A stretch of 36,816 bases of DNA, from positions 1 through 36,816 of IMG/VR virus record IMGVR_UViG_2563366829_000018; one strand, given 5' to 3'. The notes beneath the pieces are model-generated. The model was not told the DNA's origin. It searched no databases and saw nothing but the letters and a program-made list of their open reading frames with translations. Both the position numbers and the translations under genes were made by a program. Source of the stretch: a virus (Duplodnaviria; Heunggongvirae; Uroviricota; Caudoviricetes). Of this stretch, positions 938 to 33,302 are shown piece by piece. The stretch's first letter is position 1; every line of letters begins with the position of its first letter.

Positions 938-1618
938 TTACCCCTGCCGCCCGATAACCACGACCTTTCCGCCCCCGCCTTCATCACGGGTGCTGATGTC
1001 CTGGGATATACGGCGGGAGCCAACCAGCATTTCCCCGTAAGGCACCGGCATCGGGTTCCCCTGGGCAATCATGTTATCCAGCGAGGAAAAGTACGTGTTC
1101 TGTCTGCCGTTATCCGTTGCGCGGTAATCCGGTGTTTTTGCCTTCGGGGCCAGCATCTGGGCCACACCGCCCAGTATCATGCTGGCCCCCAGTGAAAACA
1201 GCATCGTGGTGGCAGAAAAACCACCGGCACTCAGGGCTGTACCCCATAACGCCATCGAGGCACCGGCCGTGAAGAAAGAGCCCACGATGGCTGCCGCCCC
1301 CAGCACAATCTGCAGTCCACCCTTTCCGGCCCCGGCCAGTCGCGGCACAATGTGGATGACCGTTCCCTCACCCAGCTGTTCGTGAAGACGGGCGTACACC
1401 GCCTCCGGTGCCGTGTCATAACCGGCAATACGTATCTGGTACCAGCCTTCGTTCATCTGACGGCGAAAGCCCGGCATCTGCATCGACAGGGCGCGAATGG
1501 CTTCCGCTGCCGTGTTCACATACAGGCTGAGGCGGCGGCCAAATCGTTGTAAATCCCCGTGAAGGCAGATGCGTGCCAGTGGCGGTGACGCCAGACAGAA
1601 TGCGTTCGTCGTTGCCAT
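938..1618 (-). CDS. I: Tail assembly protein I
   Basis: 226 aa; ARICLHGDLQRFGRRLSLYVNTAAEAIRAL matches lambda gpI; correct position between K and J. Confidence 0.85.
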   Translation of the reverse strand: MATTNAFCLASPPLARICLHGDLQRFGRRLSLYVNTAAEAIRALSMQMPGFRRQMNEGWYQIRIAGYDTAPEAVYARLHEQLGEGTVIHIVPRLAGAGKGGLQIVLGAAAIVGSFFTAGASMALWGTALSAGGFSATTMLFSLGASMILGGVAQMLAPKAKTPDYRATDNGRQNTYFSSLDNMIAQGNPMPVPYGEMLVGSRRISQDISTRDEGGGGKVVVIGRQG

Positions 1619-2269: not shown

Positions 2270-2968
2270 TTACTGCGAAAGTTTATTAATGGAAAGGAAA
2301 CCGCCAAAATTGCCGACATTCCTGCGCAGTTCACACCCGCGCATGCACTTGCTGCATCTGTCCTTACGGATATCCGTGGTGGGGTTGTCGAACTCATCCG
2401 CCACAGCCCCGCCCGTGTAACCACACTCATCAGAGCGGTAGGTCCACATACAGGTGTTCGCCAGCATGATACGACCGGGAAACAGCGCCCCGTCCGTCTC
2501 GGTCGGTGTGGCCAGCACAAACGAGGCCGTCATGGCTGTCAGCTGCGACATCTGCTCCACCACCCAGCGGTCACTCAGCTCCTGCTCCGGGTCCGCCTCC
2601 GGATTGCCCGCAACGAAATTCACCGCATCCAGAAAACGGGCATACACCCGGCGGCGGACCACCGTGGCCCCCACCAGACTCTGCAGGTCCTCCGCCATCC
2701 CGGTGACAAGGCCAAACAGATTGGACACCGTCAGCGACGGGCGGGCACTGCTGCCCCGACCGTTCATCTCAAAGCCGCTGCCGTCAATCGGGTATGCCTC
2801 ATACTTACGCCCCTGCCAGGTGACCGGCTCCCCTTTTTCATTCAGCTCATTACAGAAAAAATACCGCTCACCGCCCTGTACCGTCAGGTCGATTTCCCAG
2901 AGTACCACGCTGGCAGACTGCTCCGCACGGGTGCATTCATTCAGTGTTTCCTGTCGGATATCCTGCAT
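2270..2968 (-). CDS. L: Minor tail protein L
   Basis: 232 aa, same length as lambda gpL and recognisably similar; Cys-rich C-terminus. Confidence 0.9.
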   Translation of the reverse strand: MQDIRQETLNECTRAEQSASVVLWEIDLTVQGGERYFFCNELNEKGEPVTWQGRKYEAYPIDGSGFEMNGRGSSARPSLTVSNLFGLVTGMAEDLQSLVGATVVRRRVYARFLDAVNFVAGNPEADPEQELSDRWVVEQMSQLTAMTASFVLATPTETDGALFPGRIMLANTCMWTYRSDECGYTGGAVADEFDNPTTDIRKDRCSKCMRGCELRRNVGNFGGFLSINKLSQ

Positions 2969-17817: not shown

Positions 17818-18033
17818 TTACTCTCCCCGCGCAGCCTTACGACGGTCCTCTCTGATTTTGAAATACAGGTTAGTCAGATATGTCAGGAAGCCCAGAACCA
17901 GACTCCCCAGTACACCAATCGCAGCCCACTGTGACGGACTGACCTGATCAAGCCACTGTAAAAACCAGTAGCCAGCACTGCCTGCGGAGGTGCCGTAGGC
18001 AATGCCCGTTGAAATTTTATCCATGGATTTCAT
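17818..18033 (-). CDS. S: Pinholin, S21 family, with dual-start motif MKSMDK
   Basis: [71 protein letters not shown] matches phage 21 S; GGAGGTGAGG RBS. Confidence 0.85.
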
Positions 18034-18170
18034 AGCCTCACCTCCGCAGCGAACGGATGGCGTAGTTATAAGGGGAGCGAAAAAGAAAGAATGCGCGATT
18101 GCGCAATATGGTAACGTCAGGGTATTATCCACTGGCTGAATAGATCACTTCACGTTTTTTGTTCCTTGCC

Positions 18171-18198
18171 GCCCGTATCCATATGCGGGCTTTTTTTT
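18171..18198 (+). terminator. Plus-strand-oriented hairpin with an 8-T run (GCCCGTAT..ATGCGGGC TTTTTTTT)
   Basis: Read directly; lies back-to-back with a minus-strand terminator. Confidence 0.4.
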
Positions 18199-18203
18199 GC
18201 ATG

Positions 18204-18235
18204 TAAAAAGGCCCCAACACATGTGCGTGGGGCCT
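18204..18235 (-). terminator. Intrinsic terminator upstream of the lysis cassette (7-bp GGCCCCA stem, then TTTTT on the minus strand)
   Basis: Read directly. Confidence 0.45.
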
Positions 18236-18434
18236 GAGAGTATACATGGTTTCAGTCAACTGCATGGTGCCGTGTGCCTCCCGGTGAATTCAGTACCAGC
18301 ACCTGAATCCGCGATTATCCCATATACCTACTCGCTGATTGCCCCTCCGCACAGGGGGATTCACCATGCCAGTTTCTTTTGACAAACTCCCCGCAAAACA
18401 GACAACTGTCAACCGTCTGAATTGTGAGACATTT

Positions 18435-18459
18435 AAAAAAAGGCCCGCAAAAGCGAGCC
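18435..18459 (-). terminator. Intrinsic terminator just downstream of the tRNA cluster (GGCUCGC-UUUU-GCGGGCC followed by UUUUUUU)
   Basis: Read directly on the minus strand. Confidence 0.5.
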
Positions 18460-18473
18460 GGGAAAAATAAGTC

Positions 18474-19797: not shown

Positions 19798-19920
19798 GTC
19801 TTTTTACCCTTTCCGGTTAACGTGACATACCAATAACTCTTGTCTAAAAAGCCAGCAAGATAAAAAGCCAGTATTCACGACCACCAGCGTGTTTACTGTA
19901 CTGCACCAAGTTTACAGGTA

Positions 19921-19943
19921 CAAAAAACCCGCTCAGTGGCGGG
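19921..19943 (-). terminator. Intrinsic terminator downstream of the 205-aa cargo gene (AAACCCGC-CACUGA-GCGGGUUUUUUU)
   Basis: Read directly on the minus strand. Confidence 0.5.
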
Positions 19944-20075
19944 TTTAAGTTGTGTGGCGAAGTAACCACTCTTAACACACTAATAGCATTTTTGTTATAA
20001 CACAAGTAGCTCATTCAGTATTTTTAGAATCTTGACTTTCTTAAGCACGGCGAACTCTGAATACCAAACATAAAA

Positions 20076-20768: not shown

Positions 20769-21140
20769 CTATATGTAACAATCAATTTCTAAAGATACCC
20801 CCAACATTGCCAGACAACCGTCAATAAACCCTTCAGCTTTCTGCAGTCTGATAACAACCTGATTAAGTGATATCCCCAGTTTTACCCCCAACACCCGTAA
20901 TGTAACCCCATACACATAATACATTTCCAGTAATTCGTATTGATACGGTTCCTTTTTCTTAAGAACTGTCATCGCAGAGCTAATGATCAGGCCATCGTCA
21001 TCGCTACATTGCGGGCGGGATTTTACTTTCGAAGGAATTAATCCCTTAAAACCTGCAGCAACAGATGACCATTCCACATCCTCGTGATTATTTGCCACCC
21101 ATGCCCCCCAACGTTCAAGAACCATTTGAATATCACGCAT
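20769..21140 (-). CDS. Q: Late-gene antiterminator Q (QuuD/phage-82 type)
   Basis: MRDIQMVLERWGAWVANNHEDVEWSSVAAGFKGL matches the QuuD-family N-terminus as I recall it; GGAG RBS; position upstream of the lysis module. Confidence 0.75.
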   Translation of the reverse strand: MRDIQMVLERWGAWVANNHEDVEWSSVAAGFKGLIPSKVKSRPQCSDDDGLIISSAMTVLKKKEPYQYELLEMYYVYGVTLRVLGVKLGISLNQVVIRLQKAEGFIDGCLAMLGVSLEIDCYI

Positions 21141-32786: not shown

Positions 32787-33302
32787 ATGGCGTTAACACA
32801 CCACGAACTCTGTCAGATTGCGTACAAGTTCCTTAAGCGCAACGGGTTCAAGGTTTGCTTTCATGACCGCTTTGTTGCTGTAACCAGTACCGGAGAACAG
32901 CCAGATGCTATGGGATTCAGAAATTCAGCATCATGCCTGATAGAGGCGAAGTGTTCTCGTGCTGACTTGTTGGCAGATAGAAAAAAGCGTTTCCGTAAAA
33001 ATCCCTCACTTGGCATGGGCGACTGGCGATTCTTTATTAGTGAGCCGGAAATTATTTCAGTTGAGGATTTACCTCCCGGCTGGGGATTACTTCACGTTGT
33101 TAACGGAAGAGTACGGAAAGTACATGGATGGCCCAGGGGTAATTGCTGTTGGGGTAATCCTGACGATAAGCCATTTACCGGGAATAAGCAGGTTGAATGC
33201 GATTACATGTTATCTGCATTAAGGCGCATGGAGTTGAGAGGGCACCTTAATGAAATATATGACGGTGTAATTGTTAATAAGAAAGAAGGAAACGCGGCAT
33301 GA
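32787..33302 (+). CDS. Putative PD-(D/E)xK-type nuclease (171 aa)
   Basis: Candidate catalytic triad in EQPDAMGF ... CLIEAKCS. Confidence 0.45.
   Translation: MALTHHELCQIAYKFLKRNGFKVCFHDRFVAVTSTGEQPDAMGFRNSASCLIEAKCSRADLLADRKKRFRKNPSLGMGDWRFFISEPEIISVEDLPPGWGLLHVVNGRVRKVHGWPRGNCCWGNPDDKPFTGNKQVECDYMLSALRRMELRGHLNEIYDGVIVNKKEGNAA

Follow-up and report, generated by a model that had tools for sequence, protein, structure and literature searches.

In lambdoid prophages, a pair of convergent small RNA (sRNA) genes can stand downstream of the late promoter, ahead of the genes for lysis. In Sakai, convergent sRNAs occupy the moron site downstream of the late promoter pR' in the prophages Sp3, Sp4, Sp5, Sp9, Sp10, Sp11, Sp15 and Sp17 (PMC4104026), an arrangement known as the 'sRNA dyad' (Tree et al. 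2014, Mol Cell, PMC4104026; Sy & Tree 2021, PMC7873438) and exemplified by EcOnc27/AsxR in Sp5, EcOnc06/AgvB2 in Sp17 and EcOnc05/EcOnc08 in Sp4. The stretch of DNA considered here, referred to as the window, is positions 1 to 36,816 of the IMG/VR virus record IMGVR_UViG_2563366829_000018 (Caudoviricetes), 36,816 nt in all. It is a lambdoid (pro)phage with its late genes on the minus strand, and the interval under study (18460-18034) separates three tRNA genes from the holin gene S. This interval has the anatomy, family membership, synteny and conservation of a dyad, and positions 18090-18460 are very probably a further copy of the lambdoid-prophage module.

The interval contains three hairpins, all of which are genuine intrinsic terminators. 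On the late strand, the first begins 15 nt past tRNA-Arg(TCT) and consists of a stem-loop (18459-18442) followed by seven T residues (18441-18435); it folds at −14.0 kcal/mol (z = −3.75), and none of 200 shuffled sequences folded equally well. The second late-strand hairpin has its stem at about 18235-18210 and a T5 run at 18209-18205 (−19.1 kcal/mol, z = −3.67). The third lies on the plus strand, with a stem-loop at 18171-18190 and a T8 run at 18191-18198 (−12.8 kcal/mol, z = −2.67). Read on the minus strand, the DNA of 18171-18198 folds like its shuffles (z = −0.9) and lacks a T-run; as a terminator it therefore serves the plus strand alone. An earlier note, made from the sequence of the window, had placed two minus-strand terminators and an opposed T8 hairpin ahead of the holin and had proposed RNA folding as a check; all three are found where it put them and all three fold well. 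In the surrounding 9 kb, where 8.7 ± 3.1 terminator-like sites would be expected, 22 are present, and two of the three hairpins take the top two ranks among them. Further late-strand terminator-like hairpins are seen at 19888-19867, after a 214-aa open reading frame (ORF), and at 19613-19596, after a 65-aa ORF.

Each of the two late-strand hairpins ends a recognisable gene. The hairpin at 18435-18459 (minus strand, with its T7 run) is the terminator of a phage tRNA operon of the ileZ/argN/argO type: in Sakai Sp4, phi296 and PhiR49_2, argO is immediately followed by the same hairpin, and in VT2-Sakai the hairpin is located between argO and stx2A. Expression of stx2 depends on Q and pR'. Taken with the position of the hairpin in VT2-Sakai, this dependence suggests that late transcription passes the tRNA terminator.

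The second hairpin belongs to a member of the STnc100 family. The Rfam model STnc100 (RF02076) matches the minus strand at 18398-18199 over its full length (model positions 1-206 of 206) with 128.9 bits, against a gathering threshold of 47 (E = 5e-29), and the intrinsic terminator at 18205-18235 (minus strand, stem plus T5) is the 3' hairpin of that model. STnc100 is the same RNA as sRNA103 in EDL933 and as EcOnc27, which is bound by Hfq, in Sakai (PMC12711010), is related to PasD (bioRxiv 10.64898/2026.05.13.724894), and EcOnc06 is a further name in the family; in Stx2 phages it is positioned 75 nt downstream of stx2B (PMC12370729). The targets of the family are poorly defined; an effect of its overexpression on fimZ and espA is reported by way of citation (PMC12711010). 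In Sakai, EcOnc05 is an RNA of ∼222 nt with Hfq-CRAC support (PMC4104026). The published northern probe for EcOnc05 is identical at 35 of 35 positions to plus-strand 18306-18340 of the window. Rfam match and conserved block together delimit an STnc100-family gene (EcOnc05/EcOnc27/sRNA103 type, PasD-related) at 18199-18430 on the minus strand. The homology block common with Stx phages begins near 18431, and the 5' end of the RNA probably coincides with it, near 18427-18431: the stretch that opens with TCACAATTCAG (18427) and closes with the last T of the run (18205) measures 223 nt, close to the northern size of EcOnc05. Binding of the window copy to Hfq and its expression as a discrete RNA may be expected from this homology.

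The gene stands on the late strand between Q (21155-20769) and S (18033-17818), the place that it also takes in Sp4, Sp5, Sp15 and phi296. The 5' two-thirds of the window copy are nearly identical to EcOnc05 of Sp4, whereas the 3' third, after ...CACCATGCA, differs and has the Sp5-like version of the terminator, making the window gene a mosaic. A junction at the same word is seen elsewhere: in the IMG/VR loci L058 and L065-L083 (positions 1-300), upstream of related holins, the 5' two-thirds of STnc100 are 98% identical to the window and, after ...CACCATGCA, join unrelated DNA that has no terminator and is followed by a lipoprotein-like ORF (MGFRSASILMLIISGIIIGC...). This may represent a moron inserted in the sRNA gene or a PasD-type arrangement. 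Most of the 80 holin-anchored loci collected have other modules upstream of the holin and are uninformative on the dyad.

The opposite member of the dyad is a short gene on the plus strand that converges on STnc100. Its predicted sigma-70 promoter (18099-18128) has the −35 hexamer TTGCGC at 18099-18104, an 18-nt spacer and the −10 hexamer TATTAT at 18123-18128; its predicted product is a 65-nt sRNA (18134-18198) that ends in the T8 terminator 18171-18198. The position of this gene corresponds to that of AsxR. In VT2-Sakai (L001), STnc100 (2534-2739, plus strand, 207.7 bits) is abutted by AsxR (RF02703; 2741-2793, minus strand, 88.1 bits), and alignment puts the plus-strand hairpin of the window at the AsxR position; the 3' end of the window RNA (18198) is 6 nt from the STnc100 3' end (18205, minus strand). 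Seven units on the opposite strand were aligned, from the window, phi296, Sp4, Sp15, an IMG/VR type (L061), Sp5 (AsxR) and Sp17 (AgvB2). The promoter block is free of gaps in all seven, with TTGC(G/A)(C/A) at −35, exactly 18 nt of spacer and TA(T/A)(T/A)AT at −10. The spacers vary in these divergent units while the hexamers and their spacing are kept, which argues for a working promoter at 18099-18128. AsxR and AgvB2 both have the layout TTGCGC-18-TAAAAT, and their published RNA 5' ends lie 6 nt past the −10 hexamer; by analogy, the window RNA would start at or near G18134 and end at 18198, a length of 65 nt.

When viral contigs were scanned for the core that these units share, 119 copies were recovered, representing 38 distinct variants, and each of them faces a terminator of the STnc100 type. 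Both hexamers and their spacing are kept in 36 of the 38, the exceptions being L162, with GATTAT at −10, and L179, in which the GCGC arm upstream of the −35 hexamer is lost. The terminator stem varies but stays paired: position 6 is U.G, C-G or A-U and position 7 is A-U or G-C. The whole predicted RNA folds at −22.7 kcal/mol (z = −4.87). The −35 hexamer is itself contained in a GC palindrome, TGCGCGATTGCGCA (18092-18105), which is followed on the late strand by a T-rich run. The palindrome is present in all aligned units, and in L061 its two arms change together, from GCGC...GCGC to TGCA...TGCA, which hints that it is a selected hairpin or protein-binding site and more than a mere −35 element.

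Neither sRNA is annotated in any record examined. In deposited phage records, annotated ORFs do run over the dyad (18125-18265, minus strand, in window coordinates): XSB43084.1 in PhiR49_2 (L003, 4326-4466) and three 'hypothetical protein' ORFs in phi296 (L002, 2510-2940). These 'hypothetical proteins' are most likely spurious calls on non-coding RNA genes.

By sequence, the plus-strand RNA falls outside the AsxR and AgvB families of Rfam and within the EcOnc08/21/42 group. The unit has 75.2% identity (query positions 4-108, E = 9e-8) to units of O157:H7, where relatives at about this level occur in the Stx1 prophage and in Sp4/Sp17-like prophages, and in Sakai in Sp4 and Sp15. The core word CUUCACGUUU is invariant in all 38 variants. 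The window type is a minority variant, accounting for 6 of the 119 viral-contig copies. Copies at least 99% identical to it are present in 97 complete E. coli genome records, in none of which they are annotated; the Sp4 type is present in about 670 records. A scan of species-representative genomes for the window-type core gave one unrelated match, in a Pirellulaceae metagenome-assembled genome, and nothing else. The coordinates in Table S2 of PMC4104026 were compared with the current RefSeq Sakai sequence (NC_002695.2). At Sp4 there is apparently no offset, since the listed EcOnc05 peak and the target of the EcOnc05 probe (1179803-1179837) overlap; at Sp5 the offset is +139, as measured from AsxR. 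These offsets matter for mapping EcOnc peaks. Placed accordingly, the Hfq-CRAC peak of EcOnc08 (1179938-1180010, minus strand) spans exactly the stretch from the terminator to the −10 hexamer of the Sp4 unit, and the EcOnc21/42 peaks lie just upstream of it.

Candidates for a partner of the plus-strand RNA were also sought. No complement to a known sRNA seed was identified in it that would point to a sponge role. A search of the window for complements of the RNA core returned one site matching at 14 of 16 positions (33085-33100, minus strand), which was rejected as a target because it is antisense to a plus-strand ORF and is probably due to chance. PasA and PasC were set aside as identities of the plus-strand RNA: the preprint places both between the esterase and the holin, an interval that does not exist in the window.

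The earlier note also pointed to a perfect TTGACA between the terminators. It is present on the plus strand at 18379-18384, and another is found on the minus strand at 18412-18407. A promoter role finds no support for either. With 13 occurrences where 23.8 would be expected, the hexamer shows no enrichment in the window. That on the plus strand at 18379-18384 is a single-nucleotide polymorphism private to the window, since relatives, including those at least 99% identical, have TTAACA or TTTACA. Sp5 retains the minus-strand copy, and Sp4 nearly does; this copy was considered as the −35 element of STnc100, which is unlikely given its poor −10 and its position within the conserved block and within the ∼222-nt RNA. 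The two hexamers are the two arms of a predicted 5' stem of the STnc100-type RNA (18379-18412, minus strand), in which TTGACA at 18412-18407 pairs with UGUCAA at 18384-18379. This stem is 92% paired over eight variants and shows no compensatory changes, for want of which the structure remains a prediction.

Some results weigh against reading the locus as a dyad of two independently transcribed sRNAs. The plus-strand promoter agrees with the consensus at only 8 of 12 positions, with an 18-nt spacer, and the promoter scan missed it. The AgvB model (RF02702) scores 11.9 bits at 18137-18197 (plus strand), far below its threshold of 56 (E = 8.2), and a search of the 221 nt at 18040-18260 gave no AsxR match at E ≤ 10. 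The ∼42-nt 3' block common to AgvB, AsxR and EcOnc03 (AGTATCTCATGC..TTGCCCGAACCCA.TCGGGC) is absent, and what is shared is only TTGCC and the GCCCG...CGGGC stem. Primary transcripts of AsxR, AgvB and EcOnc03 are 51-60 nt long and the window layout predicts 65 nt, whereas the nearest relatives in Sakai, EcOnc08/21/42, run at ∼271 nt on northern blots (PMC4104026). On the other strand, no convincing STnc100 promoter was found: what lies upstream of ∼18430 is the tRNA terminator, and the minus-strand TTGACA is followed by a poor −10 (GAGTTT). Finally, pR' and tR' were not located with confidence near Q.

The size of the Sakai relatives suggests that a longer antisense RNA starting inside the downstream esterase gene exists there, or dominates. 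If this applied to the window, the plus-strand terminator would end a transcript beginning in the S leader or inside S, and the 65-nt RNA would not be the main product. In Sp4 and Sp15, a second Hfq peak (EcOnc21/42) is located ahead of the predicted promoter, which fits such a transcript. The DNA that would encode the upstream extension, the nanS-p leader with the EcOnc21/42 peak, is absent from the window, the promoter scan found no promoter-like site on the plus strand between 17830 and 18099, and the conservation of TTGCGC and TATTAT amid variable spacers favours initiation at 18099-18128; a longer RNA as the main product here is rather unlikely. The earlier note had taken the plus-strand terminator as a sign of antisense transcription entering from the lysis side. 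The Sakai relative, starting in the downstream gene, lends this some substance, but entry from the lysis side is not required, as the conserved promoter at 18099-18128 belongs to the unit itself and points away from S. As to the late strand, the STnc100-type RNA might be a 3'-trailer product, processed from read-through RNA that comes from the tRNA operon or late operon. This has a considerable, if minority, chance of being right, and is compatible with the dyad reading. It would account for the lack of a credible promoter upstream of ∼18430, for the start of the conserved block immediately behind the AU-rich UUUAAAU downstream of the tRNA terminator, and for the 3'-untranslated-region position, relative to stx, of the copy in Stx phages. 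It has to contend with the strong terminator immediately upstream (−14 kcal/mol, T7), with a weak −10-like T(T/G)(A/T)AAT at a fixed distance from the block in six variants, and with Salmonella ChIP-exo data that reportedly show sigma-factor binding at STnc100 copies (PMC10794520).

The tR'-like attenuator proposed in the earlier note, in which the late-strand hairpins would block late transcription until Q is present and the TTGACA between them would be a promoter, is most unlikely. One element of it stands: two good late-strand terminators lie upstream of S, and transcripts from pR' must pass both. The preservation of the minus-strand TTGACA in Sp5, and nearly so in Sp4, can also be counted in its favour. 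The idea of a tR'-like unit itself fails on several points. Q ends at 20769, and three ORFs and three tRNA genes occupy the ∼2.3 kb from there to this region; the late-strand terminators at 19888-19867 and 19613-19596 precede those of the interval; the 3' end of a known gene explains each hairpin; and, of the two hexamers, one has a poor −10 and the other is a private polymorphism. Moreover, the same module is found downstream of stx1, stx2 or tRNA genes and upstream of nanS-p or S, and is thus not tied to Q and pR'. A search by Q for pR' and tR' found only a weak promoter-like site (20720-20692) and no terminator before the 214-aa ORF; comparison of Q 3' ends was uninformative, few phages of the collection sharing that of the window. 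A chance cluster of functionless hairpins, to which the commonness of terminator-like matches (8.7 expected per 9 kb) might have pointed, is effectively refuted by the z-scores (−2.7 to −3.8), by the E-value of the Rfam match (5e-29) and by the conservation of all three positions across phages that are ∼68-75% identical, with pairing kept through stem changes.

On the dyad reading, whose steps follow the paradigm of λ and Stx phages and the work cited for relatives, late-strand transcription of the tRNA operon would end at the strong terminator 18459-18435. A ∼220-nt Hfq-type sRNA of the STnc100 family would follow, with its own terminator at 18235-18205. Six bases on would come the end of the plus-strand gene, at the T8 terminator 18171-18198, whose ∼65-nt RNA would be transcribed towards STnc100 from TTGCGC-18-TATTAT (18099-18128). 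In the lysogen, transcription from pR' would stop near Q, and both sRNAs would be expressed independently and would work in trans, via Hfq, on the RNA networks of the host; trans action via Hfq has been shown for the relatives AsxR (a sponge of FnrS), AgvB (a sponge of GcvB) and EcOnc27/sRNA103. After induction, Q-modified polymerase coming from pR' near Q would read through at least four late-strand terminators (19888-19867, 19613-19596, 18459-18435 and 18235-18205) to express S, and would then probably meet the plus-strand promoter head-on. Q-dependent read-through of the late-strand terminators is suggested by analogy with these systems.

The region can thus be explained by elements already published, the plus-strand member being an unannotated variant of a known group. 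The occurrence of the dyad between tRNA genes and a P21-type holin, with neither a toxin nor an esterase gene, indicates a stable module of the late region and not an accessory of stx. With its conserved core and variable 5' end, the EcOnc08-type RNA is a reasonable candidate for RIL-seq or CLASH.

The genes on either side of the dyad are those of a lambdoid late region. Ahead of it on the minus strand lie a DUF968 protein (22153-21158, Pfam), the antiterminator Q (21155-20769; PF06530, E = 1.5e-47), the 214-aa ORF (20720-20076), for which a Pfam search gave no match, the 65-aa ORF (19797-19600), whose O157 counterpart carries a TrmB family annotation, an AraC-family regulator (19465-18752, Pfam) and the genes for tRNA-Met/Ile2 (CAT), tRNA-Arg (TCG) and tRNA-Arg (TCT) (18723-18474, ARAGORN). 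Sakai Sp4 and O157 strain E32511 show the same arrangement of AraC and tRNA genes. Downstream of the dyad, the lysis genes begin with S itself, a P21-type holin of 71 aa (17818-18033, minus strand; PF04971, E = 8.6e-36), which starts with an MKSM dual-start motif, with ATG codons at 18033 and 18024; this dual start (18033-18022, minus strand) resembles that of phage 21 S. Between S and R stands a DUF1327/YdfR ORF (17813-17463), followed by the lysozyme (17399-16866) and Rz (16884-16402), all three on the minus strand and identified by Pfam, and then, in late-strand order, by the terminase. The nearest deposited phages across the stretch are PhiR49_2 (99.4% identity) and vB_EcoS-611R1. A match to the Rfam model STnc130 was noted at 19832-19954 on the plus strand, opposite the late genes, at 28.3 bits and so below the threshold of 55 (E = 0.37).

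Another lead concerns the function of the plus-strand RNA: together with its EcOnc08/21/42 relatives, it might be not a sponge but a partial copy, carried by the phage, of the host sRNA Spot 42. This comparison was post hoc and confined to Spot 42, whose sequence was checked against K-12 spf. The common type, found in Sp4 and phi296, carries UUACUUCACGU and shares with Spot 42 the same-sense word TTACTTCACGT, at Spot 42 nt 40-50, the start of single-stranded region III; nt ∼40-60, region III, are a known base-pairing region (PMC5991649). Two words occur in the window type, ACUUCACGU and GGCUGAAUA, the latter a match to Spot 42 nt 61-69; the words that this type shares with Spot 42 are GGCTGAATA (nt 61-69) and ACTTCACGT. 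An 11-mer was reached by 1-2 of 2000 shuffles and a 9-mer by 30 of 2000. The words are located at 18134-18160 (plus strand) in the window and at about 1437-1541 (minus strand) in the Sakai Sp4 unit (L090). The idea is doubtful; if it were true, the RNA could affect the targets of Spot 42 or compete for its partners, free of CRP control.

Comparison with known systems places the locus among the dyads. The pR'-6S RNA-tR' unit of λ and StxS, the pR'-tR' transcript of Stx phages, resemble the window in that a short terminated RNA precedes the lysis genes and is read through by late transcription. In λ and Stx phages the unit begins at pR', just downstream of Q, and has a qut site, whereas the unit of the window is 2.3 kb from Q and downstream of morons and tRNA genes; in Sp5, StxS coexists with the dyad, at another place.

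With AsxR and AgvB, the plus-strand gene has in common its position and orientation relative to STnc100, the TTGCGC-18-TAxxAT promoter and a short RNA with a GCCCG...CGGGC terminator. It differs from them in the sequence of the RNA body, in a 5' part that is predicted to be structured instead of single-stranded, and in having neither the CACAACA (GcvB-target) motif nor a complement of the FnrS loop. Its likeness to EcOnc08/21/42 is closer: about 75% identity over 105 nt, the shared core CUUCACGUUU...UUCCUUGCC with its hairpin and the same promoter, while the 5' end of the window type is GGCUGAAUAGAUCA and not GCUGAAAUAUUA, and the top of the hairpin and its loop differ.

The published dyads as a whole occupy the same place as in the window, between Q/pR' and the lysis genes, and consist of the same two convergent genes with back-to-back terminators and a late-strand sRNA of the same family. 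They differ in what surrounds them: the nanS-p esterase comes next in the published dyads, whereas in the window the P21-type holin directly follows the dyad, and no stx gene or other moron stands between the tRNA genes and the dyad. The closest layout is that of Sakai Sp4, in which an AraC-like gene, ileZ-argN-argO and the dyad follow one another as they do in the window.

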